Assembly: GCA_043823085.1 (NCBI GenBank)
Contig: JBDRBE010000003.1
Location: forward strand, 19,822-83,821
Direction: 5' to 3'
DNA from: Candidatus Levyibacteriota bacterium
Lineage (GTDB): Bacteria; Patescibacteriota; Microgenomatia; Levybacterales; UBA12049
Length of the DNA stretch: 64,000 nucleotides
Part shown: positions 4,073 to 64,000 of the stretch, piece by piece
Numbering within the stretch: the first letter of the stretch is position 1
How the letters are laid out: every line of letters starts with the position of its first letter
Notes under the pieces: generated by a model
What the model was told of the DNA's origin: nothing
The model's database searches: none
The model's input: only the letters and a program-made list of their open reading frames with translations
Program-made: the position numbers and the translations under genes

Positions 4073-4166
4073 ATAAAAAATTAAAAATTAATGACTTTGA
4101 TAGGTGGAAGATAAATGATAACCTTTTTCTTTTGGAGAATTTGAGGTTTTATGAGGGGGAGGAGAA

Positions 4167-4189
4167 CCCTTCGACAAGCTCAGGGCAAG
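4167..4189. repeat. Family C copy 2 (ccttcgacaagctcagggcaag), in-frame in pgk
   Basis: Same core as 4035-4056 but translated in another frame (PSTSSGQE versus PFGKLRAN). Confidence 0.65.
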
Positions 4190-4646: not shown

Positions 4647-4660
4647 AAATGGCAAATGGC
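4647..4660. repeat. 7-bp tandem duplication (AAATGGC)x2 causing the pgk frameshift
   Basis: Seen directly in the sequence: ggaatcataAAATGGCAAATGGCaaattgatcgg. Confidence 0.8.
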
Positions 4661-4910
4661 AAATTGATCGGAGATGATACGGAAATGGGGACGAAGAGGA
4701 TCGCAGAGGCGATTGTTAAAAGCGGGGCATATAGTGTAGTTGGCGGAGGAGATACTACTGAATTTTTAAAACGGCTTGGGATTTTTGATAAATTTGACTT
4801 TGTTTCAACCGGCGGGGGAGCAATGCTCTCCTTTTTAAGCGGCGAAAAATTACCGGGTTTGGAAGCATTGGCCTCTTGAAGGATTTTTTTAGAGAGTATA
4901 TACTCTAAAT

Positions 4911-12084: not shown

Positions 12085-14544
12085 ATGAAATTAGACGGAA
12101 TTAGGCAAAAAGTATTTTTAGACAGATACTCACTAAAAGATAAAAAAGGTAATGCTTTGGAACAAACTCCGGACCGAATGTGGAGGAGAGTTGCCAAGGG
12201 AGTATCTATTGCAGAAAATAAAAAGAATCAGAAAAAATGGGAGAAAAAATTTTATGATGCGATGGAAGATTTTAAATTTGTTCCGGGCGGAAGAATTTTG
12301 GCAGGGGCGGGAACCGGTTTTGCTGTAACTTTTTATAACTGTTTTGTTCTCCCTTCTCCAAAAGACTCACGCGACGGGATAATAGATAATTTAAAATCAA
12401 TGATAGAAATTATGGCCCGGGGCGGGGGAGCCGGTATTAATCTTTCTTCGCTTCGTCCAAAAGGCGCAAGGGTTAAAAAAGTCAACGGATTTTCTTCAGG
12501 TCCCTGCAATTGGGCAGAACTTTATTCTCTTGCAACCCACGATATTATTCAGCAAGGCGGTTCAAGACGCGGGGCATTAATGCTGATGCTTTGGGATTGG
12601 CATCCGGATATTGAAGAATTTATTACGGTCAAACGTGATTTAAAAAGAATAAGCGGCGCAAATTTATCAGTTTGTATTTCCGATAAATTTATGGAGGCGG
12701 TTAAAAAAGACGCTGACTGGGATTTGGTTTTTCCGGATTTAGGAGATAAAGATTACGATGAAAAATGGGACGGAGTATTAAATAATTGGAAAGCCCATAA
12801 GAAGAAAGTCAAAGTTTATAAAACTATTAAAGCAAGATACCTCTGGAATTTAATTTGCGAAGCGGCCTGGCAATCAGCAGAGCCGGGCATTGTTTTTATG
12901 GAACGCTACAACAAATGGTATAACAATTGGTATTGGAATACTGTTAACTGTACAAACCCTTGCGGCGAAGAAGGTTTGCCTTCCTGGGGAGTTTGCAATC
13001 TTTCCTCTTTGAATCTTTCGGCATTTGTCAAAGGCGACAGTGTTGATAAGGCAGGAGAAATGGATTACAAAAGTCTTTGCGAACACGCTAAAATCGGGGT
13101 GAGACTGCAGGATGATATTATTAATATCGATAATTACGCTTTCCCAGAAATTCGCGAACGACAATTAAACGGCGAGCGAAGAATTGGACTTGGGACAATG
13201 GGTCTTGGGGATGCGCTTATTAAAATGCATCTTCGTTATGGATCTGATAAATCGCTAAAGACAATAGAAAAAATATTTAGAACAATAAGAGATGCCGCTT
13301 ATGAGGCTTCGGTTGAAATCTCACGCGAAAAAGGAGCTTTTCCAAAATTCAACGCCCAAAAATACCTCAAAGGATATTTTATTAAAAAACTTCCAAAAGA
13401 AATAAGAGACAAAATTAAAAAATACGGTATTCGAAACTCTTTGCTTTTACAGGAAGCGCCGACTGGCTCAACCAGTCTTCTTTCCGGTGTTTCTTCGGGA
13501 ATTGAACCCATTTACGAATTTGAATTTATTAGAAAAGATAGGCTTGGCGAGCATACGATATGTCATCCTCTATATGAAGAATGGAAAAAAGCCCACCCCA
13601 ACGAGAAAAAACCCGATTATTTTGTTTCGGCCAATGATTTAACTCCGGAAGATCACGTTAAAGTTCAGTCATTAATTCAAAGTTTTGTTGATGCATCAAT
13701 TTCAAAAACCGTTAATGCGCCAAAAGCCCATACGGTTGATGATGTAAAAAGACTTTATGAACTTGCCTACAAGCTTGGCTGTAAAGGAATTACTTACATG
13801 AGAGAGGGTTCAAGAGAGGGAGTTTTAACGCGAGTCGAAGAAAAAAAGGAAGAGGTTGTCAAAAAAGAAATGCCAAAAGTACAAAAACCGGTTGCACCAA
13901 GACCGATGCAGTTGGAGGGAGTTACTTACATGACTGAAACGCCGGTTGGAAAAACCTATATCACAATTAACCATAATCAAGACGGAGATCCATTCGAAGT
14001 ATTTATAACTATTGGAAAATCCGGTTCTGATGTTGCGGCAATGGCAGATGCGCTGGGACGAATGATCTCTCTGAATCTTCGTTTAAATGATTCGCTGCTA
14101 CCGCGAGAACGCATTAGACAAGTTGTCTCACAGCTGGCCGGAATCGGCGGAGCAAGAAGCGTTGGGTTTGGCAAAGAAAAAGTCAGGTCTTTACCAGATG
14201 CCATAGCCAAAATTTTATCAAAACATTTTAGTTTTGCTGTTAATGGTAGTGTTGAAGATAAAAGACCAGCATCAAACGGTGAAGGGCAATCGGGTAACGG
14301 CCATGCGCAAGATGAAGAAAGTCTGGTTTCAGACAAGGCTGATTTGGTTTTAATGCAGCAGTTAACTTTGGGCGGACAAGCAAGCGGTTTACCCTCTTTA
14401 GAAATTGAAGCGTCGGAAAAAACCTATGCCAAAGATCCAAGCGCCACAAATCTTTTTGATATTTGTCCGGAATGCGGAAGCGGAAGTTTAGCTTATGAAG
14501 AAGGCTGTAGAAAATGTTATAGTTGTGGGTATTCAGAATGCTAA
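12085..14544 (+). CDS. nrdJ: class II adenosylcobalamin-dependent ribonucleotide reductase
   Basis: 819 aa. Has GGGAGINLSSLRPKGA, the active-site region NPCGEEGLPSWGVCNLSSLNL, and a C-terminal zinc ribbon CPECGSG...CRKCYSCG. It lies directly after nrdR. Confidence 0.85.
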   Translation: MKLDGIRQKVFLDRYSLKDKKGNALEQTPDRMWRRVAKGVSIAENKKNQKKWEKKFYDAMEDFKFVPGGRILAGAGTGFAVTFYNCFVLPSPKDSRDGIIDNLKSMIEIMARGGGAGINLSSLRPKGARVKKVNGFSSGPCNWAELYSLATHDIIQQGGSRRGALMLMLWDWHPDIEEFITVKRDLKRISGANLSVCISDKFMEAVKKDADWDLVFPDLGDKDYDEKWDGVLNNWKAHKKKVKVYKTIKARYLWNLICEAAWQSAEPGIVFMERYNKWYNNWYWNTVNCTNPCGEEGLPSWGVCNLSSLNLSAFVKGDSVDKAGEMDYKSLCEHAKIGVRLQDDIINIDNYAFPEIRERQLNGERRIGLGTMGLGDALIKMHLRYGSDKSLKTIEKIFRTIRDAAYEASVEISREKGAFPKFNAQKYLKGYFIKKLPKEIRDKIKKYGIRNSLLLQEAPTGSTSLLSGVSSGIEPIYEFEFIRKDRLGEHTICHPLYEEWKKAHPNEKKPDYFVSANDLTPEDHVKVQSLIQSFVDASISKTVNAPKAHTVDDVKRLYELAYKLGCKGITYMREGSREGVLTRVEEKKEEVVKKEMPKVQKPVAPRPMQLEGVTYMTETPVGKTYITINHNQDGDPFEVFITIGKSGSDVAAMADALGRMISLNLRLNDSLLPRERIRQVVSQLAGIGGARSVGFGKEKVRSLPDAIAKILSKHFSFAVNGSVEDKRPASNGEGQSGNGHAQDEESLVSDKADLVLMQQLTLGGQASGLPSLEIEASEKTYAKDPSATNLFDICPECGSGSLAYEEGCRKCYSCGYSEC

Positions 14545-14548
14545 AACT

Positions 14549-14599
14549 AGCGTATAGCGTATAGCGTATAGCGTATAGCGTATAGCGTATAGCGTATAG
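14549..14599. repeat. tandem heptamer (GCGTATA)x7 immediately after the nrdJ stop
   Basis: Seen directly: tagcgtatagcgtatagcgtatagcgtatagcgtatagcgtatag. This unit is the reverse complement of the CTATACGC family found elsewhere in the window. Confidence 0.9.
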
Positions 14600-15594: not shown

Positions 15595-16758
15595 ATGGGA
15601 AAAGAAGTGTTTTTTGATAGAATAACAGCCAAAAATGTTGGTTTTGATTTACCGCAAGAAGCAGTTAATGTGTCAAGGGCCTTGACAAAATTTCCTTTTT
15701 TAAGAAAAGAAATCATTAAAACTACCGCTCGTCAAATCAGGACTTACGAGTCAGAAACCCTTAAAGATAGTGTCGTGTCTTATTATCCATGTTTTCTGCA
15801 TTCTGTTGGAGGAAAAACGAAATTATTCTCTTCGGATATCCCTCATGAACAATTTTTAATGGAGTCTCAAATAGACTCGATTGAAAGAGATGGTGCGCCG
15901 TTAAATGGTTTTAGAAAATTGCAAGAAGAATTAGGCCGATTTAGCGGGAAAAGATTATTCTTATGGATTAGTCCAAAAGGAAGCGCTGGCAATAAGGGAA
16001 TTTATAAAAAAATTAATTATGGTTATCATCAAATTTATATTGGGACAGCTGAAGACAGAAAAACCCAAGCCTATGCCCTAAAGTCTGATATTGATGAAAG
16101 GGTACTAGCCAGTTGGATTAATCAAGTTTCGAATGGAAAGACTAGCATTAAGGGAGAGGATTCTCTGGAATTTCTCTTTAATCCGGTCGTAGTCCCTTTT
16201 TTTTCTTCGACATATTCTTCCGATGAAATGATAGCTTTCGCCCTGGTTAGATTAAAAAATATTTTGGCAAAAAGCAAGCAGTCGGCATTTTATAAAGATG
16301 TAGAAGTTGAAAACTTACCGGATTCAATGATAGATACAAAAATAGAACAAGAAAGAGATGTTGAAAGAATAGCTAGGGAACTTGATATTCAGCTCTCTAT
16401 GGATAAATGGTTAGGTTATGAAGAAGCTAGACGAGCAATTGGAGGGCAAATGTATGTTTTGTATGAAAGTTATGCTAATAAAAAGGGAGAATTTGAATTA
16501 AAAGGTTGTTCGGGAGGAACAAAAACCACCAAAAATCTTTTTGAGAATGAAATAGATTTATTAATTGAAAATATTTTTTCTACAGCATTCAGAATTAAAA
16601 ATTCTACAACGGATGAAGAATATAAGTTTGATAAAATTGATGATTGTGTAAAATGTGGAGCAAAGAATGTTGCCGTTGGTCCTTGTAAGATCTGCCAGCC
16701 ATGTGACAAAGCATTAAGAGCTAAAAGCGCCGCAAAATATTCCTTCTCCTTGAACTAA
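15595..16758 (+). CDS. hypothetical protein under B12-riboswitch control, with a C-terminal Cys-rich zinc-ribbon-like motif
   Basis: 387-aa ORF with no family I recognise. The C-terminus is CVKCGAKNVAVGPCKICQPCDKA. Confidence 0.55.
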   Translation: MGKEVFFDRITAKNVGFDLPQEAVNVSRALTKFPFLRKEIIKTTARQIRTYESETLKDSVVSYYPCFLHSVGGKTKLFSSDIPHEQFLMESQIDSIERDGAPLNGFRKLQEELGRFSGKRLFLWISPKGSAGNKGIYKKINYGYHQIYIGTAEDRKTQAYALKSDIDERVLASWINQVSNGKTSIKGEDSLEFLFNPVVVPFFSSTYSSDEMIAFALVRLKNILAKSKQSAFYKDVEVENLPDSMIDTKIEQERDVERIARELDIQLSMDKWLGYEEARRAIGGQMYVLYESYANKKGEFELKGCSGGTKTTKNLFENEIDLLIENIFSTAFRIKNSTTDEEYKFDKIDDCVKCGAKNVAVGPCKICQPCDKALRAKSAAKYSFSLN

Positions 16759-16818
16759 AAGAATTTTGTAATCTCGATATAATGACAGTTTTATTTTTTA
16801 GTGCTATTATATTTATAT

Positions 16819-17304
16819 ATGGACGATTCGCAAAACTCAAAACTCAAAACTCAAAACTCAAATCAACAGGGTGGATTAGTAAATCAGACGGCGAACCAAA
16901 GTTTAGTATCAAATCCTTCAACCGTTACAGAGCCTGTTTCTCCTGTTAGTGTTCCTCAAAAAGAAATTGTGGAGCCGGTTTTAAATCAGCCAATAGCATC
17001 AGAAATTCAGGAGGAATGGGTAAAGCCGTCCCAAGCAGAGCCGGAGATTCAGCCAGAAGTAGAAGAAGCAGGTGTCGAAAAAGTTTCGGAGCTACCAAGA
17101 ATTACAGAAGAGCATAAACAAGTCGGCATAGAGCATGCCAAAGAGTCAACGCCCGTTCAAACAAAACCCTCGGGAACAATTCAATTACCAATGACCGAAA
17201 AAGAGGCGGATTCACAGATAAAATCAACAAAAAATACAGACTCGCCGCATTGGCTGGCAGTTTTAATTAAAAAAATATTTAAACGTTTAAAAGGGACAAA
17301 CTAA
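16819..17304 (+). CDS. hypothetical low-complexity (Q/N/S/P/E-rich) protein
   Basis: ORF starting MDDSQNSKLKTQNS... contains an in-frame (CAAAACT)n repeat (16831-16866) and is followed 1 nt later by the next gene. Confidence 0.4.
   Translation: MDDSQNSKLKTQNSNQQGGLVNQTANQSLVSNPSTVTEPVSPVSVPQKEIVEPVLNQPIASEIQEEWVKPSQAEPEIQPEVEEAGVEKVSELPRITEEHKQVGIEHAKESTPVQTKPSGTIQLPMTEKEADSQIKSTKNTDSPHWLAVLIKKIFKRLKGTN
16831..16866. repeat. tandem heptamer (CAAAACT)x~5 inside a coding region
   Basis: caaaactcaaaactcaaaactcaaaactcaaatc. Confidence 0.85.
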
Positions 17305-19692: not shown

Positions 19693-19800
19693 GGGTAGAA
19701 GATAGAAGTTTGATGATAGATCTTGAAGTTTGAAAATGGAAGTTAGATTCTATCTTCTAGCTTCTAACTTCAAATTCTAGCTTCTAGTTTCCAGCGTCAA
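19693..19800. repeat. complex imperfect palindrome / inverted repeats in the spacer after the T4CP-like gene
   Basis: TAGAAGATAGAAGTTTGA...TTCTATCTTCTAGCTTCTAACTTC. The arms are reverse complements. Confidence 0.5.
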
Positions 19801-21056: not shown

Positions 21057-21131
21057 CCCATTCGTCGCTTCGCTCCTCAGGGCAAGCTTGACTTTACAAA
21101 GGCCTTAATCTTTCGCTAAGATAGACGAAGC

Positions 21132-22943
21132 ATGAAAAAGATTTCCACGGGACCCGCATTCGGTGATTTTATTGGTTTGGAAAAATCCTCGCCAAAAAGG
21201 CATTACGGCGGCGAGGGCGACAGGACACAAATGCGGGATTTTTTACTGCCGCTTTTATTAATTATTTTGCTTGGCATTCTTATTTTCAGGCTTGCCGCTT
21301 TGCAAATTTTCCAGGGAAGTTATTATCGAAACCTGGCTGATAATAACAGAATCAGGACAACTACGATTCACGCTCCGCGGGGCATTATTTTTGACCGGAA
21401 CAACACGCCTTTGGTTTTTAATGTGCCCGGTTTTCGCGAAATTATTAATGGAAAAACTATTCTTCTCTCCCAAAAGCAGGCGATACAAGTAATTGCAGAA
21501 GGCAAAAAAGATCTAGAGGTTGATTCTCTTCGGGAATATTCTTATAAAGACGCTTTTTCTCATGTTTTGGGCTATCTTGGCCAAATTTCCCAAGGTGAAC
21601 TCAAAAAAGAAGAATTTAAAGACTATGCCGGCGGAGATTTAATAGGAAAAGACGGGATTGAACAGCAATATGAAAGTTTGCTTAAAGGTACAGACGGGAA
21701 GCAATTGTTTGAGGTGGATGCTTTAGGTAAAACAATAAGGACTTTGGGGGTTGAGGATCCAATTCCAGGTCTTGACATTAAATTAACTTTGGATGCCAAA
21801 CTGCAAATTGCAGGGTTTAAAGCAATGGAAAATGTTAAAAAAGGCGCATTAATTGTTTCAACGCCAAAAGGAGAAATCCTGGCTCTTATTTCAAAACCGA
21901 GCTTTGACCCAAACCTTTTTACCAAAGGCGAGTATTATTCTTCTGCTTCAGATTCTGCAAAGCAGAATTTGTCTGACGTTCTTCTTGGGCAAGAGAATCC
22001 TCTTTTAAACAGGGCAATTTCCGGAGTTTACCCTCCCGGATCAACTTTTAAAATAATTACGGCGGCAGCGGCTCTAGAAGATAAAATTATTGACGAGAAT
22101 TTTACGGTTGAGGACATAGGAGTTTTGCAAGTTGGAGCTTTTTCTTTTGGCAACTGGTATTTTCTGCAATACGGAAAAACAGAAGGAATTCTTAATGTAG
22201 TTTCGGCTTTAAGGCGGTCAAACGATATTTTCTTTTATAAGCTAGCCGAAAAAATTGGCCTTGAAAAATTATCGGAAATGGCAAAAAATTTTGGCCTTGG
22301 GCAAGCCTTGGGGATTGATTTAAGCGGCGAGGCAGAAGGTCTTGTGCCATCAGATTCCTGGAAACAAAAAGCAATTGGCGAGTCATGGTACTTGGGCGAC
22401 ACTTATCATTATGGTATTGGACAAGGATATTTGTTGACAACGCCTTTGCAGGTTAATACTTGGACCCAAGCGATCGCAAACGTGGGCTCGCTTTACGAGC
22501 CACATTTGCTTCAAAATCAAAAATTCTCGCGGAGCGAGACAAAATTCAAAATTCAAAGTTCAAAGTTTTTGAGTCAAAAAACAGTTGACTTAATTCGGCA
22601 GGGGATGGTGGAGAGTTGCAGCCCGGGTGGGGTGGCATGGCCGCTCTTTGAATTTAGAATTAAGAATCAAGAATTAAGAATTGATGGGAAGAATTTTTTG
22701 GAAGTGCCAACTTCATCAACTTCGGGACAAATGAAAGATTATCGGCAAATTTCAATTGCCTGTAAAACAGGAACAGCCCAACATGGAGGATTAGAAACTA
22801 TGCCTCACGCCTGGATAACGCTTTTTGCCCCGGCTTATGATCCGCAGATTGTCGTGACAGTTTTATCAGAAGAATCAGGGGAGGGTTCAAATGTTGCCGC
22901 CCCAATCGCCAAAAAAGTTTTGGAAGAGTGGTTTACTAGATAA
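21132..22943 (+). CDS. class B penicillin-binding protein (PBP2/FtsI-like peptidoglycan D,D-transpeptidase)
   Basis: N-terminal TM segment, PBP dimerisation region, and transpeptidase motifs (STFK, SxN region, KTGTAQ). It carries in-frame tandem-repeat insertions at 22515-22575 and 22655-22700. Confidence 0.85.
   Translation: MKKISTGPAFGDFIGLEKSSPKRHYGGEGDRTQMRDFLLPLLLIILLGILIFRLAALQIFQGSYYRNLADNNRIRTTTIHAPRGIIFDRNNTPLVFNVPGFREIINGKTILLSQKQAIQVIAEGKKDLEVDSLREYSYKDAFSHVLGYLGQISQGELKKEEFKDYAGGDLIGKDGIEQQYESLLKGTDGKQLFEVDALGKTIRTLGVEDPIPGLDIKLTLDAKLQIAGFKAMENVKKGALIVSTPKGEILALISKPSFDPNLFTKGEYYSSASDSAKQNLSDVLLGQENPLLNRAISGVYPPGSTFKIITAAAALEDKIIDENFTVEDIGVLQVGAFSFGNWYFLQYGKTEGILNVVSALRRSNDIFFYKLAEKIGLEKLSEMAKNFGLGQALGIDLSGEAEGLVPSDSWKQKAIGESWYLGDTYHYGIGQGYLLTTPLQVNTWTQAIANVGSLYEPHLLQNQKFSRSETKFKIQSSKFLSQKTVDLIRQGMVESCSPGGVAWPLFEFRIKNQELRIDGKNFLEVPTSSTSGQMKDYRQISIACKTGTAQHGGLETMPHAWITLFAPAYDPQIVVTVLSEESGEGSNVAAPIAKKVLEEWFTR
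22515..22575. repeat. AT-rich tandem repeats (AAATTCAAA / AGTTCAAAG) in-frame in PBP2
   Basis: gacaaaattcaaaattcaaagttcaaagtttttgagtcaaaaaa, encoding ETKFKIQSSKFLSQK. Confidence 0.8.
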
Positions 22944-25399: not shown

Positions 25400-26752
25400 T
25401 TGATGAACAATCAATTCAAAAATAAAAAAATTGCCATTGTCGGGCTTGGAATAGAGGGTTTATCAAGCGCAAAGTTTTTTATTGAAAAGCGAGCAGAAGT
25501 TACAATTCTGGACAAAAAAGAAAAAACCGAATTAAACCTAGACACTCCGTTTGTTTTTGGTAAAAATTATCTGGATAATCTTGACTGTTTCGATGTCATT
25601 GTTAGAAGTCCGGGTGTTAAAGTTGATCTTCCAAATCTTCAAAAAGCAAAAGAAAAAGGAACGGTTATCACTTCTCAAATAAAACTTTTTTTTGATCTTT
25701 GTCCCTGCAAAATCATCGGCGTTACCGGAACAAAAGGAAAAGGAACGACCGCGTCGTTAATTTACGAAATGTTTAAAAAACAAACCAGAAATGCGTATTT
25801 GGGTGGTAATATAGGACTGCCTCCATTGGATTTTTTGGACAAATTAAATTCTCACTCAATTGTAGTTTTGGAACTCTCAAGTTTCCAACTCCAAGACCTT
25901 AAAAAGAGCCCTCATATTGCCGTAATTCTTATGACTTTAAGTGAACATCTTGATTATCATAAAGATGTTGAAGAATATGTCAGCGCAAAAAGAAATATTG
26001 TTAAATTTCAAAAGACTTCTGACTTTGCGATTTTAAATATTGATTATCCGGCAAGCCGCGAATCGGATATCCATACTCAGGGAAAAGTATTTTATATTAG
26101 TCGGGAAGGGGAGGTTGGTGAAGGATGTTTTGTGAAAAAAGGGGAAATAAAATTAAAAATTAAAAATGAGGAATTAAAAATTATTGATACTAAAGAAATT
26201 TTATTACCCGGGGAGCATAATTTTGAAAATGTTTGCGCGGCGGTTATGGCGGTTGCACTTTGTAATGTCTCGAAAGAGAATATCATTAAAGTCCTTAAAA
26301 CCTTTAAGGGCTTGGAGCATCGTTTGGAGCTTGTTGGAGAGGTTGGCGGCGTTAAATATTACGACGATTCGTTTTCGACCACTCCCGAAACTGCCATTGC
26401 CGCAATACTGGCTTTTAAAAATCCGGAGATTTTAATTTTGGGCGGGTCAAGTAAAAATTCAGATTTTAGCGAGTTAGGAAAAGTTATTAGTAATGCAAAA
26501 AATATCAAGGCGATTATTGGAATCGGTCTTGAATGGAAAAGAATTAAGTCAACTATACGCCATACGCTATACGCCATACGCTATATTGAAGGATTAAAGA
26601 ATATGCATTCAATTATTCAAAAAGCTTCAGAAATAGCGGAGGTGGGGGATATTGTTCTTCTGTCGCCGGCATGTGCCAGTTTTGATATGTTTAAGAACTA
26701 CAAGGACAGGGGAAGGCAGTTTAGAGAAGAAGTGGAGAACCTCAAGAAATAA
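25400..26752 (+). CDS. murD: UDP-N-acetylmuramoylalanine--D-glutamate ligase
   Basis: Rossmann N-terminus KIAIVGLGIEG and the Mur ligase P-loop IGVTGTKGKGTTASLIYEM. There is an in-frame CTATACGC-family repeat at 26548-26590. Confidence 0.9.
   Translation: MMNNQFKNKKIAIVGLGIEGLSSAKFFIEKRAEVTILDKKEKTELNLDTPFVFGKNYLDNLDCFDVIVRSPGVKVDLPNLQKAKEKGTVITSQIKLFFDLCPCKIIGVTGTKGKGTTASLIYEMFKKQTRNAYLGGNIGLPPLDFLDKLNSHSIVVLELSSFQLQDLKKSPHIAVILMTLSEHLDYHKDVEEYVSAKRNIVKFQKTSDFAILNIDYPASRESDIHTQGKVFYISREGEVGEGCFVKKGEIKLKIKNEELKIIDTKEILLPGEHNFENVCAAVMAVALCNVSKENIIKVLKTFKGLEHRLELVGEVGGVKYYDDSFSTTPETAIAAILAFKNPEILILGGSSKNSDFSELGKVISNAKNIKAIIGIGLEWKRIKSTIRHTLYAIRYIEGLKNMHSIIQKASEIAEVGDIVLLSPACASFDMFKNYKDRGRQFREEVENLKK
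26548..26590. repeat. CTATACGC/CCATACGC repeat inserted in-frame in murD
   Basis: aagtcaactatacgccatacgctatacgccatacgctatattg, encoding STIRHTLYAIRYI. Confidence 0.75.
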
Positions 26753-26790
26753 TTTTCAATTTTCAATTTTAAATTTCCAATCAATTTTCA

Positions 26791-28083
26791 ATGAATAAAA
26801 TTTTTAAATTCAAAATAGTTAAATCGGAGGTTAAATCAAAGGTGAGAGCTGGAGAAATTATCACTTCCCATGGTGTTGTTCATACGCCGGCTTTTGTGGT
26901 AGTAGGTACACAAGCAACGGTAAAGTCCCTGATGCCGGAGGATTTAAAAAATATTGGCGTTGAAATTTTGTTTGGCAATACTTATCATTTGCATCTTCGG
27001 CCGGGGGAAGATGTTATCCAAGAACTTGGGGGATTGGGAAAATTTATGGGGTGGAGTGGGGCAACAATTACTGACAGTGGCGGGTTTCAAGTATTTTCGT
27101 TAAATCGCGGAAAAACGCTGAACAGAACGCAGAATAACACGGAAAATGATTTCGGCGCAGTTCCGCGTCCACCAGTTGGCGGAGTTCAGCGTGATTCAGC
27201 GCCTGTCTTGGTCAAAATTACCGACAATGGGGTGGAGTTTAGGTCGCATTTGGATGGTTCAAAACACATTTTTACTCCGGAAAAGTCAATTGAAATACAA
27301 CAAAAACTTGGTGCGGATATTATTTTGGCTTTTGATGAATGCGCGCCGCATCCTTCAACTTGCGAATACACAAAAAAGGCAATGGAAAGGACACACGAGT
27401 GGGCGGTCCGATGCCTAAAAGCGTTTAATCCACCGTCCGAGGAGTCGAGGTCGTTGCCTCGCCACCTCGGAGGTGGCCGAATGGACTCCTCCGAGGTGAA
27501 TTTGCAGGCCCTTTATGGCATTATTCATGGTGGGATTTACAAAGATCTACGAGAGGAATCGGCAAAATTTATCAGTAATCTTTCTTTTGATGGTATTGCA
27601 ATAGGCGGAGTAGCTGTTGGGGAGAGCAAAAAAGAAATGCGGGATGTTTTAAATTGGGTTTATCCTTTTTTACCCGAAGATAAGCCTCGGCATTTGCTTG
27701 GAATTGGAGAAGTTGATGATATTTTTGACGCGGTCGATAAAGGAATGGATACATTTGATTGCGTTATTCCAACCAGATTCGGGCGTTACGGGATTGTTTT
27801 TGTGCCAAAGCCGGAGGGAAATATAAAAAATCATTTTCGGATTGACCTTAATAAATCAATTTATGCCAGAGACAAAGGCCCAATCAGTAAAGATTGCAAA
27901 TGCTATACTTGCCAAAATTTCACCCGTGGTTATCTTAACCATCTTTTCCGCGCGCAAGAATTACTCGGCTATCGCCTTGCAACCTATCATAATCTTTATT
28001 TTATCGTCGATCTTGTTAAACAAATCCGAGAGTCAATTCTGGAGGGGAGATTTGAGAAATTAAAAAAAAAGTGGCTGGGCTAA
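26791..28083 (+). CDS. tgt: queuine tRNA-ribosyltransferase
   Basis: HTPAFVVVGTQATVK, the Asp-rich active site, LLGIGEVDDIFDAVDKGMDTFDCVIPTR and the zinc site CxCxxC...H are present. There is a ~70-bp palindromic in-frame insert at 27431-27500. Confidence 0.9.
   Translation: MNKIFKFKIVKSEVKSKVRAGEIITSHGVVHTPAFVVVGTQATVKSLMPEDLKNIGVEILFGNTYHLHLRPGEDVIQELGGLGKFMGWSGATITDSGGFQVFSLNRGKTLNRTQNNTENDFGAVPRPPVGGVQRDSAPVLVKITDNGVEFRSHLDGSKHIFTPEKSIEIQQKLGADIILAFDECAPHPSTCEYTKKAMERTHEWAVRCLKAFNPPSEESRSLPRHLGGGRMDSSEVNLQALYGIIHGGIYKDLREESAKFISNLSFDGIAIGGVAVGESKKEMRDVLNWVYPFLPEDKPRHLLGIGEVDDIFDAVDKGMDTFDCVIPTRFGRYGIVFVPKPEGNIKNHFRIDLNKSIYARDKGPISKDCKCYTCQNFTRGYLNHLFRAQELLGYRLATYHNLYFIVDLVKQIRESILEGRFEKLKKKWLG
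27431..27500. repeat. palindromic GC-rich element inserted in-frame in tgt
   Basis: ccgaggagtcgaggtcgttgcctcgccacctcggaggtggccgaatggactcctccgagg. The outer arms and the central CCACCTCGGAGGTGG are reverse complements. It encodes SEESRSLPRHLGGGRMDSSE. Confidence 0.7.
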
Positions 28084-36744: not shown

Positions 36745-37701
36745 ATGAAACGTTTTGTTCTCATTGATGGCCATGCGATACTTCATCGGGCTTTTCATGC
36801 ATTGCCTCCGCTGACTTCTGCAAAGGGAGAAACGGTAAATGCGGTCTACGGATTTTTTGCCATGCTTCTTAAAATTTTAGAAGACGTAAAGCCGGAATAT
36901 TTAGCTATTTGTTTTGACAGGCCAAAACCAACTTTTCGTCAAGAACTTTACGTTGGTTATCAGGCCCATCGGCCAAAAATGGACAGCGATTTAGTTCCTC
37001 AAATTGTCCTTCTTCATAAAGTTTTGGAAAGGATAAAAATTCCAATTTTTGAGGTGGATGGATATGAGGCAGACGATGTGATCGGCACTTTGGCCGATCG
37101 AATTCAAAAATCAAAAATCAAAAATCAAAAATTGCAAACGATAATTGTTTCAGGAGATAGAGACATGTTGCAACTTGTAAATTCTCATGTTCTGGTGCTT
37201 GCGCCAATTACAGGCATTACAAAAATGATTTTATTTGACCAAGAAAAAGTGGAGGAAAAATACGGACTTAAACCTTCTCAAATTATTGATTACAAGGCGT
37301 TGATAGGAGACCCTTCAGATAATTATCCGGGAGTTTTGGGGGTTGGACCAAAAACCGCGGCAGAACTTCTTTTAAAATATGAAACACTTGAGAATTTATA
37401 TCAAAATTTAGATTCAGTAGAAAATAAAAAACTGGTGGAAAAGCTGGCCAAAGAAGCGGAAGCCGCAGGAATGGCCAAAAAATTAGCTACCATTATCACT
37501 GACGCGCCGATAACGTTGAGTATTGAAAAATGTTTAGTTTCAAAAGTTGACTTAGAAGAAACAAAAAAGGCCTTTGAAGAGCTGGGGTTTAAGAGTTTGT
37601 TAAAAAGACTAGGACAGAATTCTAGTGATTCAGTGGCTAAGGAAGAACAGAAGCCTAAGGAAACACAAAATAAGGACAATGGTCAGTTAGGACTTTTATG
37701 A
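36745..37701 (+). CDS. stand-alone 5'-3' exonuclease / flap endonuclease (Pol I N-terminal-domain family)
   Basis: MKRFVLIDGHAILHRAF ... GYEADDVIGTLA ... H3TH motif GDPSDNYPGVLGVGPKTA. No polymerase domain follows. There is an in-frame (TCAAAAA)x3 at 37105-37132. Confidence 0.85.
   Translation: MKRFVLIDGHAILHRAFHALPPLTSAKGETVNAVYGFFAMLLKILEDVKPEYLAICFDRPKPTFRQELYVGYQAHRPKMDSDLVPQIVLLHKVLERIKIPIFEVDGYEADDVIGTLADRIQKSKIKNQKLQTIIVSGDRDMLQLVNSHVLVLAPITGITKMILFDQEKVEEKYGLKPSQIIDYKALIGDPSDNYPGVLGVGPKTAAELLLKYETLENLYQNLDSVENKKLVEKLAKEAEAAGMAKKLATIITDAPITLSIEKCLVSKVDLEETKKAFEELGFKSLLKRLGQNSSDSVAKEEQKPKETQNKDNGQLGLL
37105..37132. repeat. tandem heptamer (TCAAAAA) in-frame in the exonuclease gene
   Basis: caaaaatcaaaaatcaaaaatcaaaaatt, encoding KSKIKNQK. 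Confidence 0.85.
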
Positions 37702-39376: not shown

Positions 39377-40641
39377 AAGTTGCGTTGGTGCATGATTATA
39401 TTAAAGAATATGGAGGCGCCGAAAGAGTGCTTGAGGCGTTGCATGAGATTTGGCCGGAGGCGCCCATTTTTACTTCGGTTTATCTGCCTGAATTTTTAGG
39501 ACCGCACAGGGAAAGGTTTAACGGATGGAAAATTAAAACTTCAATTCTTCAAAGTTTACCATTGAAAGCAAAATTAATAAGCCCTTTTCGAATTATCGCG
39601 CCGCTAATCTTTCGGTCATTTGATTTCAGCGATTATGATGTAGTAATTGTTTCTGCAACCGGAGCATATACACCGAACATGATACAACTCAAAACCACAA
39701 CTCAAAGCTCAAAAATAACTGACCATACGCCATGCGCCATACGCCATGCGCCAGTTCATGTTTGCTATTGTCATACGCCGCCAAGATATCTTTATGGATT
39801 TGCTACGGCAAGGGATTGGAAAAAGAATATTATTTTTAGGGTTTTGGGGGAAATTGCCAATGCATTTTTGCGGCAAATTGATTTTAAATCGGCGCAAAAC
39901 GTTGATTATTTTATCGCCAACTCAAAAAACGTGGCGGGAAGAATTAAAAAGTTCTATAAAAGAGATTCGACAGTTATTTATCCCCCCGTAGTTGGCGCTG
40001 AGGTCGGACATACAAATTTTTTTGTTCCGCAGTTGTCTCACGAAGAATCTCAAGGTGTTCATCAGCGCATTGGCGCTCGACAAGATGCGAACAGAAAAAA
40101 TTTGATATCCTCCCCGCGCCAATACTTTTTAGCCGGAGGAAGATTGGCAAGGCCAAAACACATTGATTTGATTGTTCAAGCCTGCGCTGAACTAAACCTT
40201 CCTCTGAAAATTTTTGGGAAGGGATTCGCGGGATACGATCAACAATTAAAAAATCAAAAATCAAAAATCAAAAATATAACTCAAAAGTCAAAAGTTGAAT
40301 TTTTGGGAGAAGTGAGCGACCAGGAGAAGTTGGAGTTGATGAAAAATGCCAAGGCTTACATTTTTGCCTCGGAAGATGAGGATTTTGGTATCACACCGGT
40401 TGAAGCAATGAGTGTTGGTACGCCGGTTGTTGCTTACCGTTCGGGAGGCGTTGTTGAATCGGTTGTTGATGGAAAAACAGGAATATTTTTTGATAAACTA
40501 TCAATAGAGTCTTTGGCGGAGGCAATAAGGCGCTTAAGCAGTTTAGGGGACTTAAGTGAAAATTGCCGCAATCAGGCCAAAAAATTTAGTAAAGAAAGAT
40601 TTAAAAAAGAAATCGTAGAATTTATTAAATCAAAAATTTAA
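39373..40641 (+). CDS. family GT4 glycosyltransferase carrying three in-frame repeat insertions
   Basis: N-terminus VALVHDYIKEYGGAERV and C-terminal EDFGITPVEAMSVGTPVVAYRSGGVVESV (E-x7-E region). Inserts lie at 39685-39755, 39998-40121 and 40248-40276. Confidence 0.8.
   Translation: MKVALVHDYIKEYGGAERVLEALHEIWPEAPIFTSVYLPEFLGPHRERFNGWKIKTSILQSLPLKAKLISPFRIIAPLIFRSFDFSDYDVVIVSATGAYTPNMIQLKTTTQSSKITDHTPCAIRHAPVHVCYCHTPPRYLYGFATARDWKKNIIFRVLGEIANAFLRQIDFKSAQNVDYFIANSKNVAGRIKKFYKRDSTVIYPPVVGAEVGHTNFFVPQLSHEESQGVHQRIGARQDANRKNLISSPRQYFLAGGRLARPKHIDLIVQACAELNLPLKIFGKGFAGYDQQLKNQKSKIKNITQKSKVEFLGEVSDQEKLELMKNAKAYIFASEDEDFGITPVEAMSVGTPVVAYRSGGVVESVVDGKTGIFFDKLSIESLAEAIRRLSSLGDLSENCRNQAKKFSKERFKKEIVEFIKSKI
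39685..39755. repeat. AT-rich plus CCATACGC/CCATGCGC repeat insertion in-frame in the GT4 gene
   Basis: caactcaaaaccacaactcaaagctcaaaaataactgaccatacgccatgcgccatacgccatgcgcc. Confidence 0.7.
39998..40121. repeat. ~125-bp RPE-like element with terminal inverted repeats (family B copy 1), inserted in-frame inside the GT4 CDS
   Basis: aggtcggacatacaaatttttttgttccgcag...gatgcgaacagaaaaaatttgatatcctccccgcgcca. It is about 85% identical to 50285-50409 (intergenic). The termini CAAATTTTTTTGTTCCGCAG and CTGCGAACAGAAAAAATTTG are reverse complements. Confidence 0.8.
40248..40276. repeat. (TCAAAAA)x4 tandem repeat in-frame in the GT4 gene
   Basis: aaaaatcaaaaatcaaaaatcaaaaatat. Confidence 0.85.
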
Positions 40642-43537: not shown

Positions 43538-44417
43538 CCAAAGCCAGTTAAAGAAACTTTATCGACCTCAAAAGAATTCTCATAAGGGGCAAAATGGGAA
43601 GTTGATGATTATCGGCGGGTCGCATCTTTTTCATGGTGCGTCTTTGTGGGCGCTAAAAGTTGCTTCAAGAATTGTAGACATGGTTTTTTATTCATCAACA
43701 GCGGAAAATAATCAACTCACGCAGGAATTAAAAAGCAAACTTTATGATTTTATGGCAATTTCAAGAGATAAAATTGACGATTATATTAAAGAGGCGGATG
43801 TTGTTCTTTTGGGCTCGGGATTGCCAAGGGAAGAGGGAAGAGAAGAGAGAGAAGAATCGACAAGAGAACTCACGCAAAGATTATTAAGCTCGTATCCCGA
43901 TAAAAAATGGGTGATTGATGCAGGTTCTTTAACCGAGATGGAGCCGGAATGGCTATTACCATTAAAGGGAAACGTGATAGTTACTCCACATAAAGGAGAG
44001 TTTGAAACTCTTTTTAAACTCAAAAGTCAAAAGTCAAATCTCAAAACCACAACTCAAAACTCAAAAATTACGGAAGAAATTGTTCAGCAAATGGCCGGAA
44101 AATATAACTGTGTGATTCTTTTAAAGGGCGCAACAGATATTATTTGTTCGCCCTTCGACTCCGCTCAGGGTGAAATTCGTTGCGTCCGAATTTCAGGTGG
44201 AAATGTAGGGATGACCAAAGGGGGAACAGGAGATGTTCTAGCAGGTTTAGTTGCGGCGCTTTCTTGCAAAAACGATTTGTTTTTAGCGGCATCGGCTGGT
44301 TCATTTATCAACAAAAAAGCCGGAGAAAGTCTTTATGAGAAGGTTGGACCTTATTTTAACGCTTCAGATTTGGCAGACGAAATTCCCGCAGTAATGAATC
44401 ATTTAATCAATAAATAA
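43524..44417 (+). CDS. YjeF C-terminal-domain carbohydrate-kinase-like protein (NAD(P)H-hydrate dehydratase family)
   Basis: GQNGKLMIIGGSHLFHGASLWA ... GGTGDVLAGLVAALS. It carries in-frame repeat insertions at 43810-43870 (GA-rich), 44020-44075 (AT-rich) and 44150-44200 (family D). Confidence 0.7.
   Translation: MEKFDQSQLKKLYRPQKNSHKGQNGKLMIIGGSHLFHGASLWALKVASRIVDMVFYSSTAENNQLTQELKSKLYDFMAISRDKIDDYIKEADVVLLGSGLPREEGREEREESTRELTQRLLSSYPDKKWVIDAGSLTEMEPEWLLPLKGNVIVTPHKGEFETLFKLKSQKSNLKTTTQNSKITEEIVQQMAGKYNCVILLKGATDIICSPFDSAQGEIRCVRISGGNVGMTKGGTGDVLAGLVAALSCKNDLFLAASAGSFINKKAGESLYEKVGPYFNASDLADEIPAVMNHLINK
44150..44200. repeat. family D element (ccttcgactccgctcaggg + hairpin gaaattcg...cgaatttc), in-frame in the YjeF-like gene
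   Basis: The core TTCGACTCCGCTCAGGG is shared with 59866-59925 (inside trxB) and related to family C (GCTCAGGGCAA). Confidence 0.65.
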
Positions 44418-45518: not shown

Positions 45519-45860
45519 CTATTCTTTTTTGCTTTCTAGTTTTTCGAGGAGTTGGGAGAGCTGGACGGTAATAATAACAGCAAGGGCGGTTATTAAAATT
45601 GCATAAATGAGAAGGGAAACGAGGCCGCTTCCCGGAATCCATTTCTTAATATAGTCGTTGACAAAGGCTTGAATGACATTGTTCCAGGCCAAAGCAGCCA
45701 CTAATCCAAAACCCGAAGTTGCAAGGGTTAACATCTGCCGTGTCACCTCAATATGTAATTTCTTATCTGCCATAAAAAGATTATACCACATTGACTTTTC
45801 TCGGGAAAAATGCGTTAATAGTTTAAGATTTAAGATTAAGGATTTAAGATTTAAGAACAT
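45519..45860 (-). CDS. small conserved-looking membrane protein (two TM helices)
   Basis: MADKKLHIEVTRQMLTLATSGFGLVAALAWNNVIQAFVNDYIKKW; the true start is probably an internal Met. Confidence 0.4.
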   Translation of the reverse strand: MFLNLKSLILNLKLLTHFSREKSMWYNLFMADKKLHIEVTRQMLTLATSGFGLVAALAWNNVIQAFVNDYIKKWIPGSGLVSLLIYAILITALAVIITVQLSQLLEKLESKKE

Positions 45861-45895
45861 TCATAAATCGTAAATCATAATTCATAAATCAAGAA

Positions 45896-48875: not shown

Positions 48876-50267
48876 ATGCAACTAGTGGCAGATTTACATG
48901 TACATAGTAAATACTCACGCGCGGTATCACCGGACATGGTTTTGCCAATCATGGCAAAATGGGCAGTTAAAAAAGGAATTGATATTTTGGCAACTGCCGA
49001 CTGGACACATCCTCTTTGGTTTAGGGAAATAAAAGCTAACCTAGAAGAATCCAGTATTGGACTCTTCAAGCTCAAATCTTCCTCCTACTCTAAAGCTTCG
49101 GAGGACAAGCAAAACAAAACTCATTTTATTCTCTCCACTGAAATTTCGAGCATTTACTCGCAGGGTGGGCAAGTGCGGAGAGTTCATAATTTAATTTTAT
49201 CGCCGGGCTTTGAAACTTGCGAAAAAATCAATCAGGAATTGGTTAAACGCGGGTGTAATCTTTCCTCCGACGGACGGCCGATTGTTGGAATTTCTTCAAA
49301 AAATCTTTTGGAAATGGTTTTATCAATTGACAAAAACGCCTTATTTATTCCTTGCCATGTTTGGACGCCGTGGTTTTCTTTGTATGGTTCAAAATCAGGC
49401 TTTGATTCTATAGAAGAATGTTTTGGTGAGTATGTAAATAAAATTTATGCCGTTGAGACAGGACTTTCAAGCGACCCCCAAATGAACTGGCGGATAAAAG
49501 AATTGGAAAACCGTTCAATTGTTTCCTCGTCTGATTCCCATTCGCCGGCAAAGATGGGGAGGGAAGCGACCATATTCACAGTTCAAAATTCAAAATTCAA
49601 AAATCAAAATGACAGTTCAAAATTCAAAATTACATATGATGATTTAGTAGCTGCTATAAAAAGAGATCCCGAAGGTAATTTAAAGATTGGTTATACTATT
49701 GAGTTCTATCCGGAGGAGGGGAAATACCATTATACGGGGCATAGAAATTGTAAAGTTGTACAGAGTCCGGAGGAAACAAATAAGAATGGAGAGATTTGTC
49801 CGGTTTGCAAAAAACCCCTGACAGTGGGAGTGATGCACCGTGTTGAACAACTTGCTCAACAACAATCAATAAACAACTATCGACAATCAACAGATAAATT
49901 TGGAGTTACTTGGGTTGAAGATTCCAGAGGTATTCATCCGCCGTTTGTAAAATTGGTGCCTTTAAATGAAATAATTGCCGAGAGTTTAGCATCGACCGTG
50001 TCTAGCGTCAAAGTAAAAAGCGTTTTTGATCAAATGTGTGGTGAATTCGGTTCGGAAATAAAAATTCTTTTGACAACTCCAATTCAAGATTTGGAAAAAG
50101 CCCAAGGGCCAAAAATTGCCGAGGGAGTTGCCAAAGTCAGGAAGAGTGATATTGTGATTGAACCCGGATTTGATGGAGAATATGGGAAGGTAAAGATATG
50201 GGGAGAAAAAAAGTCAGCAGAGAATAGAAATGGGGAGAAAGAAGAGGCGCAGTTGGGATTATTTTAA
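48876..50267 (+). CDS. PHP-domain nuclease, endonuclease Q-like (TIGR00375 family)
   Basis: N-terminal DLHVHSKYSRAVS PHP motif, further His/Asp metal ligands (PCHVWTPWFS, SSDSHSP), an internal CxxC zinc finger (ICPVCKKPLTVGVMHRVEQLA) and C-terminal PGFDGEYGKVKI. The architecture matches archaeal EndoQ. An in-frame AT-rich tandem repeat lies at 49580-49632. Confidence 0.55.
   Translation: MQLVADLHVHSKYSRAVSPDMVLPIMAKWAVKKGIDILATADWTHPLWFREIKANLEESSIGLFKLKSSSYSKASEDKQNKTHFILSTEISSIYSQGGQVRRVHNLILSPGFETCEKINQELVKRGCNLSSDGRPIVGISSKNLLEMVLSIDKNALFIPCHVWTPWFSLYGSKSGFDSIEECFGEYVNKIYAVETGLSSDPQMNWRIKELENRSIVSSSDSHSPAKMGREATIFTVQNSKFKNQNDSSKFKITYDDLVAAIKRDPEGNLKIGYTIEFYPEEGKYHYTGHRNCKVVQSPEETNKNGEICPVCKKPLTVGVMHRVEQLAQQQSINNYRQSTDKFGVTWVEDSRGIHPPFVKLVPLNEIIAESLASTVSSVKVKSVFDQMCGEFGSEIKILLTTPIQDLEKAQGPKIAEGVAKVRKSDIVIEPGFDGEYGKVKIWGEKKSAENRNGEKEEAQLGLF
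49580..49632. repeat. AT-rich tandem repeat (TTCAAAA) in-frame in the EndoQ-like gene
   Basis: cagttcaaaattcaaaattcaaaaatcaaaatgacagttcaaaattcaaaatt. Confidence 0.85.
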
Positions 50268-51984: not shown

Positions 51985-52602
51985 ATGAAATTAATAGTAG
52001 GGCTTGGAAATCCGGGGGAGAAGTATGAGAAAACCCGCCATAATTTGGGTTTTATGGTTTTGGAAAAATTCTTGCAGGATTTTGAATCGGCGAAGATGAC
52101 AGTTTGGAAGAACGAACCAAAATTCAAATGTGAAACAGCACTTATTGAATGGCAGCCAAAAATTGGTCAATTGGAAAAAGTGGTTTTGGCAAAACCAAAA
52201 ACCTATATGAATAATTCCGGACTTGCCATTAAACTTCTCACTTCTTACTTCTCACTTTTCACTTCCGATGTTTGGGTTATTCATGATGATATTGATTTAC
52301 CGCTCGGTTCATTAAAGATTAGATTTGGCGGCTCATCGGCCGGACACAAAGGAGTTCAATCAATTATTGACAATCTTGGAACAGATAAGTTTTGGCGTTT
52401 TAGAATGGGGATAGGAGAACAATATCAAAAATCAAATATCAAAGATCAAAAGATTAGAAATGTCGATGAATATGTTTTGAATACATTCAAAGGACAGGAG
52501 AGGGGAAAAGTTAAGGATTTAATAAAAAAAGGTTCAAAAGCGATTCAAACAGGACTTGAAGACAGTTTAGAAGCGGCAATGAATAGGTTTAACACTAAGT
52601 AA
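51985..52602 (+). CDS. pth: peptidyl-tRNA hydrolase
   Basis: MKLIVGLGNPGEKYEKTRHNLGF and HDDIDLPLGSLKIRFGGSSAGHKG (Pth signatures). It has a short in-frame TCACTTC repeat insertion. Confidence 0.9.
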   Translation: MKLIVGLGNPGEKYEKTRHNLGFMVLEKFLQDFESAKMTVWKNEPKFKCETALIEWQPKIGQLEKVVLAKPKTYMNNSGLAIKLLTSYFSLFTSDVWVIHDDIDLPLGSLKIRFGGSSAGHKGVQSIIDNLGTDKFWRFRMGIGEQYQKSNIKDQKIRNVDEYVLNTFKGQERGKVKDLIKKGSKAIQTGLEDSLEAAMNRFNTK

Positions 52603-53898: not shown

Positions 53899-54062
53899 TA
53901 CAATAGCCTTAATTTTCAATTTTAAATTTTCAATTTTTAATAAACAAAGTTTGAAAGCTCGCTTGAAATACTTTGTTTTCAAGCTTTGCTTATTAAATCT
54001 AAATGTTTTAATTTTATCATTGGAAATTGATTAGAGATTAGAAATTAAGAATTAGAAATTAT

Positions 54063-59226: not shown

Positions 59227-59553
59227 ATGGCAGAAGTAATTATTACCGATCAAAATTTCGAATCAGAAGTTATTAAATCTGACATGCCGGTTCTTGTGGA
59301 TTTTTGGGCGCCGTGGTGCGGGCCATGCCGGATTGTCGGTCCGATTATCGAAGAATTGGCAAAAGAATATGAGGGAAAAGTTAAAATCGGAAAATTAAAT
59401 GTTGACGAAAATTCCGATACTGCGACAAAATATGCGGTGATGAGTATTCCGACTCTTCTTATCTTCAAAAAAGGAAGTCCTTTTAAAACCATGGTCGGCG
59501 CTCTGGCAAAAGAAAATATTAAAAAGGAAATCGATTCAGTAATTAGCGTATAG
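59227..59553 (+). CDS. trxA: thioredoxin
   Basis: Active site WAPWCGPCR. Confidence 0.92.
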
Positions 59554-59620
59554 GGTATAGGGGATAGCGTATAGTTTCCGTTTTAACTATATGCTATACG
59601 CCATTTGCTATACGCTGTTT
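59551..59620. repeat. long hairpin built from GCGTATAG/CTATACGC units between trxA and trxB
   Basis: gcgtatagggtataggggatagcgtatag...ctatatgctatacgccatttgctatacgc. The arms are reverse complements. It may act as a terminator or attenuator. Confidence 0.65.

Positions 59621-62014: not shown

Positions 62015-64000
<1,986 letters not shown>

Follow-up and report, generated by a model that had tools for sequence, protein, structure and literature searches.

The 64,000-nt stretch of a Candidatus Levyibacteriota genome analysed here (GenBank assembly GCA_043823085.1, contig JBDRBE010000003.1, positions 19,822 to 83,821; hereafter the window) carries about 26 tandem arrays of heptanucleotide units, one of which lies in the gene for a 5'-3' exonuclease. 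These arrays are probably microsatellites produced by a process that acts on DNA with a preference for 7-nt steps, most likely slippage, and are filtered by reading frame, stop codons and the tolerance of protein loops. An earlier reading of the window from its sequence alone (the sequence-only reading) had described AT-rich heptamer arrays in the exonuclease, GT4, YjeF-like, PBP2, EndoQ-like and pth genes and in one further open reading frame (ORF), and had likened the pattern to selection for intrinsically disordered inserts. The arrays are all present, and the evidence on their period, copy number, distribution and turnover does not favour that selection as their cause.

The window has a G+C content of 37-38%, with almost all genes on the + strand. 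The closest homologues of its exonuclease (ORF 36745..37701, Pfam PF02739 and PF01367) are found in Candidatus Levybacteria and other Microgenomates (Patescibacteria, also called the candidate phyla radiation, CPR), at no more than 74% identity. Relatives of the same species were found neither in genome nor in metagenome collections, and the best matches reach ~70-72% DNA identity. Pfam agrees with the names given earlier to the exonuclease, the GT4 glycosyltransferase, the YjeF-type NAD(P)HX dehydratase, PBP2, pth, MurD, PGK and GAPDH, and the EndoQ-like ORF matches TIGR00375 with a score below the curated cut-off. For comparison, two sets of related loci (denoted by L-numbers) were used: 80 loci around exonuclease homologues, taken from one-genome-per-species contigs, and an independent set of 80 loci around FtsH homologues, taken from metagenomes.

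Period, copy number and reading frame

Under a strict criterion of 13 of 14 matches at a given lag, with dinucleotide shuffles as the control, the window contains 12 segments of period 7, against 0.03 ± 0.18 in the shuffles and 0-2 at each of the other periods from 2 to 13. Period 7 also makes up more than a third of the 92 rows returned by Tandem Repeats Finder (TRF), which was used together with a slightly looser lag scan to catalogue the arrays of the window (Table 1). It is the only period that is enriched in the exonuclease-centred loci as well, and in the metagenome loci it accounts for 76 segments, compared with 0-11 at periods 4-12, with one or more arrays in 26 of the 47 loci that reach 10 kb. 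Enrichment at periods 6, 9 and 12 was seen neither in the strict scan of the window nor in the run scan of the pooled data (the window plus the 160 related loci, 2.17 Mb). The trait is patchy, being common in Levybacteria-like loci, Moranbacteria and some other Patescibacteria, while Dehalococcoidia/Chloroflexota loci are nearly free of arrays and bear them only in L042 and L044.

By the looser scan, ~15 of the ~26 arrays of the window lie in genes and ~11 in spacers and the 23S rRNA gene. Given 54 kb of coding and 9.5 kb of non-coding DNA, this amounts to ~0.28 and ~1.2 arrays per kb, so that arrays are ~4 times denser in non-coding DNA, yet the majority by count are inside genes. Since arrays are denser outside genes and also build two insertions in 23S rRNA, the driver cannot be sought at the level of protein.

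Copy number was measured as maximal exact lag-7 runs, scored inside long ORFs and in non-coding DNA of the pooled loci. Inside ORFs the runs are 14 nt (8 runs), 17 nt (1), 20-27 nt (43), 30 nt (1) and 35 nt (1) long. A run of 21-27 nt corresponds to four to just under five perfect copies, i.e. one unit plus three, and the 43 perfect arrays of the main class indeed have 3.9-4.9 copies, with almost none at 3.1-3.7 and two at five or more; the 14-nt class consists mostly of arrays with one mismatch in the following unit. No comparable peak of run length appears in ORFs of the pooled loci at periods 5, 6, 8 or 9. The five perfect non-coding arrays are spread over 16, 19, 24, 32 and 45 nt, and the two distributions differ with a Fisher p of 0.013 (0.0007 without the 14-nt class), the non-coding sample being small (n=5). 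The arithmetic of the sequence-only reading, in which three units of 7 nt keep the frame, is borne out by this quantisation at four copies, as well as by the lengths of the exonuclease and GAPDH arrays described below.

Because 7 equals 2 x 3 + 1, the frame in which a unit is read changes from copy to copy through all three, and a unit must be free of stops in each frame of the sense strand. TAGCGTA, which contains TAG, is found in the spacers at 14548-14599 and 59544-59574, and inside MurD and GT4 it is present as the reverse complement CTATACG/CCATACG. In the GAATTAA array of PBP2, the only copy that would place TAA in frame reads CAA, which removes the stop. None of the catalogued array-bearing ORFs is interrupted at its array except PGK.

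The PGK gene is split at AAATGGC AAATGGC AAAT (4647-4664) by one extra AAATGGC unit. ORF 3718..4677 ends in WNGPMGIINGKWQIDRR followed by the stop, while the conserved C-terminus goes on in another frame (4649..4879), and deletion of 7 nt (one unit) gives a PGK of 384 aa that aligns with PDB 1php across the junction. Judged from this alignment, the extra unit appears to be the out-of-frame product expected of a heptamer process; if fixed, it would make PGK a real pseudogene or a split gene, and otherwise it could be an allele carried by a minority or an error of the consensus. Homology confirms no other out-of-frame case. A scan for other genes whose frame is restored by adding or removing one unit was set aside as non-specific, with 11 candidates at period 7 against 59 at period 5.

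Array sites in orthologous genes

The exonuclease array shows the 21-nt step directly. In L001 and L095, 12 aa separate GYEADDxxGT from xSGDRD, and the DNA of this loop reads ...ACT CAA AAC..., with one CAAAAC seed. The loop of the window and L003 is 19 aa long, with four CAAAAAT units at the place of the seed, exactly 21 nt more than in L001 and L095. The array, given as 37105-37132 in the sequence-only reading, was recovered at 37104-37132 with 4.1 perfect copies (TCAAAAATCAAAAATCAAAAATCAAAAAT, translated as IQKSKIKNQK). Relative to 6vde and 1taq, and to the commonest loop of 14 aa, the loop is longer by 5 aa. In an AlphaFold2 model of the exonuclease (mean predicted local distance difference test score, pLDDT, 81), the encoded residues QKSKIKNQK (Q121-K129) run from the end of helix 109-122 into the loop that precedes strand 130-135, and the 10-residue block of the insert has a pLDDT of 65, compared with 82-90 in the flanking blocks. 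Placement of the insert at a loop, which had been proposed as a check, is thus what the model gives.

The GAPDH array is the second locus that shows the step of 21 nt or 7 aa directly. Net lengths elsewhere are less tidy (+8 aa at pth site 2, and ~+18 aa each at GT4 site 1 and the YjeF-type site), and three coding arrays, two in MurD and one at pth site 1, are length-neutral. The term insertion thus fits most of the coding arrays, not all.

At the YjeF-type site, arrays of the same length and of different units are present in L003, L009, L013, L007, L008 and L015, and absent in L017, L006 and L014. The proteins of the seven genomes that share this insert length are just 50-65% identical. In the DNA of five relatives, the site holds about four near-perfect copies of a unit of its own (TCTCAAA in L003, CAGAATT in L009, AAGAATT in L007, AAAAATT in L008 and TTTCCAA in L015), with a degenerate tail behind them. 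The periodicity of the DNA is kept, while the peptides it encodes are completely different (LKSQKSNLK, KFRIQNSEF and QFPISNFQS). The exonuclease site likewise varies in its unit (CAAAAAT, CAAAGTT, CAGAATT, AAAAGTC). Near-perfect arrays in proteins so diverged cannot be relics, and each lineage must have formed them anew at hot-spots of long standing. The comparison of species therefore suggests that array sites are ancient and that their content is still turning over, so that the arrays are not fresh insertions, nor are the peptides frozen ancestral ones. The alternative considered earlier, that orthologues widely share the same segments as ancestral features, stands as to the position of arrays, which recur at the same sites, and fails as to their content, the units being lineage-specific and the peptides different.

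Origin and maintenance of the arrays

In the mechanism we favour, slipped-strand mispairing at replication, with a strong preference for 7-nt steps, would seed and expand heptamers throughout the genome and in many relatives, and selection would then decide which arrays persist. Inside an ORF, an array would be kept where the net change preserves the frame, in practice where one seed becomes four units (+21 nt, +7 aa), where the unit is stop-free in the three sense frames or the offending copy has mutated, and where the site is a surface loop that tolerates insertions and deletions. Reading of the units in three frames would give a peptide rich in K, S, Q, N, I and F with a period of seven residues. 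In spacers, any unit in any copy number could persist, and in rRNA arrays would persist as inverted pairs that lengthen a helix. Slippage as the generating step is something we infer, as are the gain of three units in a single event and any reason for the number seven.

An excess of heptanucleotide repeats in bacteria has reportedly been known since 1990 (cyanobacterial short tandemly repeated repetitive sequences, STRR) and 2007 (genome surveys), and the window organism represents a new host group for this known bias and does not amount to a new system. Searches of the literature turned up nothing specific on heptamer repeats in CPR/Patescibacteria. According to the summaries of Mrazek et al. 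2007 in PMC4692102 and PMC4679880, heptanucleotide simple sequence repeats (SSRs) are the most abundant class of long SSR in many bacterial genomes, and polymerase slippage over ~7 nt was proposed as their source. The arrays of the window share the traits of such long SSRs (Mrazek, Guo & Shah 2007, in the same summaries): they consist of head-to-tail 7-nt copies beyond chance, period 7 is over-represented against other unit lengths, and each genome holds many units. As summarised there, the long SSRs belong mainly to large genomes (Burkholderia, cyanobacteria, actinobacteria, Xanthomonas) and to intergenic DNA, with units divisible by three dominating inside genes, whereas the window comes from a small CPR genome in which most arrays are in housekeeping genes as frame-keeping blocks of four copies.

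Several observations weigh against slippage as a sufficient account. The passage from one seed to four copies in one viable step is left unaccounted for. Classical slippage by one unit presupposes that at least two copies are present, and a simultaneous gain of three units presupposes more. The three length-neutral coding arrays would not be predicted by simple expansion, the instability of the arrays appears from comparison between species only, and the non-coding set used for copy numbers comprises five perfect arrays. Units are also more alike within than between genomes (0.19 against 0.09 of pairs at distance 1 or less, permutation p 0.0005), part of which may reflect base composition, and the rare 7-mers TAGCGTA/CCATACG form arrays at six loci. 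The comparison of composition with the background, suggested by the sequence-only reading, shows arrays in ORFs to be far A-richer and G-poorer on the sense strand (A45 C19 G8 T28) than the background (A33 C16 G22 T29) or the prediction from the stop filter alone (A28 C22 G22 T27). The clustering of units by genome, the use of rare 7-mers and the A-rich, G-poor bias are hints that slippage is not simply random and that a preference for certain sequences, or templating, is also at work. Abundance of the unit as the cause of unit choice was rejected, since 7-mers of the TAGCGTA type have at most four copies outside arrays in the window, yet form arrays at six loci.

These features could find a home in a lineage-specific active process, present in some Patescibacteria and a few other lineages, that writes 7-nt arrays in discrete bursts. 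Such a process, which we regard as unlikely, could be a property of the replisome or repair set or the work of a dedicated enzyme. It would be marked by A-rich and G-poor sense-strand units, a partly genome-specific choice of unit, and a link to hairpin-forming inverted arrays and small GC-rich palindromic inserts. If it existed, it would be a main source of new protein loops and rRNA expansion segments in these reduced genomes.

Quite unlikely is selection for disordered inserts, to which the sequence-only reading had likened the pattern; the heptamers would then be kept for useful disordered peptides rich in K, S, Q and N, such as flexible linkers or interaction motifs. The encoded peptides are polar and of low complexity, and arrays persist at the same loop and with the same insert length in distant orthologues, both at the YjeF-type site and in the exonuclease. 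The tandem repeats of Borg elements offer a parallel, being read as making disordered regions and likewise A-rich on the coding strand (PMC9879509); they share with the present arrays pervasive, recently formed perfect repeats, low-complexity or disordered peptides and unbroken ORFs. The genic units of Borgs, however, come in various lengths that are multiples of three (PMC9879509), whereas the present arrays have a constant unit of 7 nt and keep the frame through the number of units. Against an adaptive role, the peptides of orthologues differ in sequence and chemistry (KSQKSNLK, FRIQNSEF, FPISNFQ), L017 and L006 do wholly without the insert of the YjeF-type gene, and some arrays substitute sequence and add zero length. 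The higher density outside genes, the arrays in 23S rRNA and the frameshift in PGK point the same way, and the claim of selection for disordered inserts is not sustained.

A sequence-specific origin, in which arrays are written or spread by a mobile mini-element, ectopic templating or gene conversion, or are kept as protein-binding sites or RNA structure, is rated just as improbable. It would account for the clustering of units by genome, the spread of the rare TAGCGTA/CCATACG family over six loci including 23S rRNA, the recurrence of identical units in different genomes, the strong hairpins of inverted array pairs, and the GC-rich hairpin mini-elements of L082 and L002, whose place is exactly between heptamer units. 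Heptamer families have moreover been read as regulatory in Beggiatoaceae, Xanthomonas/Nostoc and Geobacter (PMC4679880, PMC4692102, PMC2700814). Against it, there are more than 15 different units among the ~26 arrays of the window and ~70 in the pooled loci, the dominance of any one being partial (CAAAANT in nine arrays, TAGCGTA/CCATACG at six loci). The flanks of arrays are not conserved, the seed unit in a short orthologue at the same site points to local expansion, and the similarity of units within genomes may partly be a matter of base composition.

In Geobacter metallireducens, elements made of four heptanucleotide repeats in tandem, with the consensus GGACCGG, are present in 49 copies within and between genes (PMC2700814). 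Four tandem copies (3.9-4.9 in 43 ORF arrays) and a position within and between genes are shared features, but the Geobacter elements have one GC-rich consensus and are interpreted as regulatory RNA elements (PMC2700814), whereas the present arrays have many, mostly A-rich units, no single consensus and a seed visible in short orthologues. The genome-specific families, i.e. the cyanobacterial STRR and TAACTGA of Beggiatoaceae (PMC4679880) and GGGAATC of Xanthomonas and GGGGAYT of Nostoc (PMC4692102), resemble the arrays in their heptamer period, a partial genome-specific preference of unit and occasional inverted pairs capable of forming hairpins. These families have one dominant unit and are largely intergenic and often long, while the arrays described here are diverse in unit and, by count, mostly coding, if ~4 times denser in non-coding DNA.

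Phase variation, in which slippage in copy number toggles a gene on and off, is very unlikely. Its model is neuO of the E. coli K1 prophage CUS-3, in which the copy number of an (AAGACTC)n tract has to be a multiple of three for the product to be full-length (PMC13001214). The units of the window are of the same type, being A-rich heptamers inside coding sequence whose peptides may be compared (RLKTQDS in our translation of AAGACTC, QNSKLKT here), and PGK is in an off frame through one extra unit. The neuO tract is, however, a long 5'-terminal one of 3-53 copies that switches an accessory gene (PMC13001214), whereas the present arrays are short (~4 copies) and internal, not long 5' tracts of surface or modification genes. 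Their hosts are single-copy housekeeping genes (pth, MurD, PBP2, GAPDH, exonuclease), in which the off state should be lethal, and apart from PGK the array-bearing ORFs are uninterrupted at their arrays.

An assembly or sequencing artefact is almost certainly not the explanation: repeats can be mis-assembled, and the frameshift in PGK may reflect an error of the consensus or an allele carried by a minority, but the arrays (21-58 nt) are below sequencing-read length, the ORFs remain open, and the same sites bear arrays in many independent assemblies from different projects. Three further readings were rejected. Coiled-coil heptads (21 nt encode 7 aa) are excluded because the arrays encode just 1.3-2.5 heptads and lack the a/d hydrophobic pattern. 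Phased A-tract bending of DNA and ribosomal slippery heptamers were both set aside on the sequence alone, given that the 7-bp spacing is out of phase with the helix and that arrays are present in spacers and rRNA besides genes.

A heptamer-preferring DNA process under a selective filter therefore gives the most probable account of the arrays. Since CPR genomes are compact and gene-dense, the filter is easily read from them, as the passage from one seed to four copies and as units free of stops. The many orthologous sites allow seed, product and later turnover to be compared directly, and so offer clean data on the nature of the elementary mutational step and on its length of seven bases. A repeat bias of the DNA can give rise, as by-products, to low-complexity loops of CPR proteins and to some insertions in rRNA, and a single 7-nt unit can break a gene call, as in PGK, which matters for metabolic reconstruction from metagenome-assembled genomes.

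Catalogue of arrays and neighbouring features

The arrays with their coordinates are collected in Table 1. The list of the sequence-only reading proves incomplete, since GAPDH, MurD and PGK also bear arrays, as do about ten places in spacers and 23S rRNA. Its description of the arrays as AT-rich does not extend to the TAGCGTA, CCATACG and GACAGAA families. The AT-rich array it placed at 39685-39720 in GT4 is present, just degenerate, and adjoins a GC-richer CCATACG/CCATGCG array (39723-39753) that it did not mention.

Table 1. Heptamer arrays of the window, coding loci first (positions refer to the window; x, number of copies)
Array	Position	Strand	Location	Remarks
AAATGGC x2.6	4647..4664	+	PGK	frameshift point
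ATCAAAG x4.3	5091..5120	+	GAPDH	exactly +7 aa vs PDB 1hdg
CAAAACT x4.6, perfect	16831..16862	+	unannotated ORF 16801..17304	near N-terminus
CAAAATT x3.6	22540..22564	+	PBP2	inside variable region aa 462-557
GAATTAA x4.7	22650..22682	+	PBP2	stop-removing CAA in one copy
AAAATTA x5.0	26149..26183	+	MurD	length same as orthologues
(CTATACGCCATACG) x2.4	26553..26585	+	MurD	stop-free orientation of TAGCGTA family; length unchanged
TCAAAAA x4.1, perfect	37104..37132	+	5'-3' exonuclease, ORF 36745..37701	TRF score 58
degenerate CAAAACY, then (CCATACGCCATGCG) x2.2	39685-39721, then 39723-39753	+	GT4 glycosyltransferase	
AAAAATC x6.6	40249..40293	+	GT4 glycosyltransferase	perfect core 40249-40275; loop 5-8 aa longer than in orthologues
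AAACTCA x7.4, imperfect	44016..44066	+	YjeF-type NAD(P)HX dehydratase	
ATTCAAA x8.4, imperfect	49574..49631	+	TIGR00375 (EndoQ-like) ORF	
ACTTCTC x4.7	52233..52265	+	pth (site 1)	length-neutral, gapless vs conserved segment
ATCAAAA x4.0	52424..52451	+	pth (site 2)	+8 aa vs PDB 7y52
AATTTGA and AAAATTT, AT-rich	3611..3717		spacer upstream of PGK	fill the spacer
TAGCGTA x7.4, perfect	14548..14599	+	intergenic	directly after stop codon of ORF 12085..14544; unit contains TAG
TAGCTTC x7.6, imperfect	19744..19795		intergenic	
AATTTTC x6.4	26751..26792		spacer between MurD and next gene	
TTTAAGA x5 and TCATAAA x4.4	45822..45891		between divergent genes	
AATTTTC x4.4	53911..53941		intergenic	
TAGCGTA-type and inverted CTATACGC-type	59544..59617	+	just after ORF 59227..59553	
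GACAGAA and inverted TTCTGTY	62305..62428	+	23S rRNA	insertion
GGCGTAT-type and CGCTATA-type	62715..62810	+	23S rRNA	second insertion, Rfam model position 583

Among the coding arrays, the insert at 39685..39753 of GT4 amounts to ~18 aa and is common only to the window and L003. Family searches with ORF 16801..17304, Pfam included, gave zero matches. The array at 45822-45856 is probably non-coding, to judge from its position in an N-terminal ORF extension that has no counterpart in orthologues.

The inverted arrays at 59544..59617 form a hairpin of -35.3 kcal/mol (z -6.4), which may be a terminator or an RNA-stability element. The 23S rRNA gene (window 62020-64000) carries at least two heptamer-built insertions. 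The first is 107 nt long, compared with 5 nt in the Rfam model, and folds into a hairpin of -56.2 kcal/mol (z -7.2); in the hairpin of the second (-51.4 kcal/mol, z -7.8), stems of 5 bp recur at intervals of 7 nt. Upstream of the 23S rRNA gene are tRNA-Ala (61412-61486) and protein-coding ORFs, the 16S gene being absent there, and the rRNA genes appear to be unlinked. In the exonuclease of L084, a loop of 56 aa is encoded by two inverted arrays (GTAGAAG-type and TCTACCR-type) that give -49.7 kcal/mol inside coding sequence, and resembles the 23S rRNA insertions of the window.

Inserts of another kind are found in the same genes. In the exonuclease loop of L082 and L002, two heptamer units have exactly between them a GC-rich insert that forms a hairpin (TCGCCTCGCG...GCGAAGCGGGC), and the loop of L008 contains a perfect, GC-rich palindrome, CCTGCCTGCCGGCAGGCAGG. 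Inside the PGK gene of the window (3812-3846) lies a GC-rich, partly palindromic element of 34 nt, CCCGCCTGCCAAAGCCTGGCACTGGCGGGCAGGC, which encodes RLPKPGTGGQA and falls within a stretch of 19 aa that is inserted in comparison with 1php. The element shares 97% identity with L021:17065-17098, inside a YjeF-type gene, while the two genomes are ~69% identical overall. By analogy, this looks like a small element that inserts in frame, comparable to the Rickettsia palindromic elements.

Other RNA features of the window include a match to the AdoCbl-II riboswitch (15452-15525; 37.0 bits, against a gathering score of 36.5) upstream of ORF 15595..16758, and two divergent tRNA-Met(CAU) genes, 65 nt apart, at 25084-25292. 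A tRNA-Ile with anticodon UAU, an uncommon means of reading AUA in bacteria, is encoded at 20984-21060.

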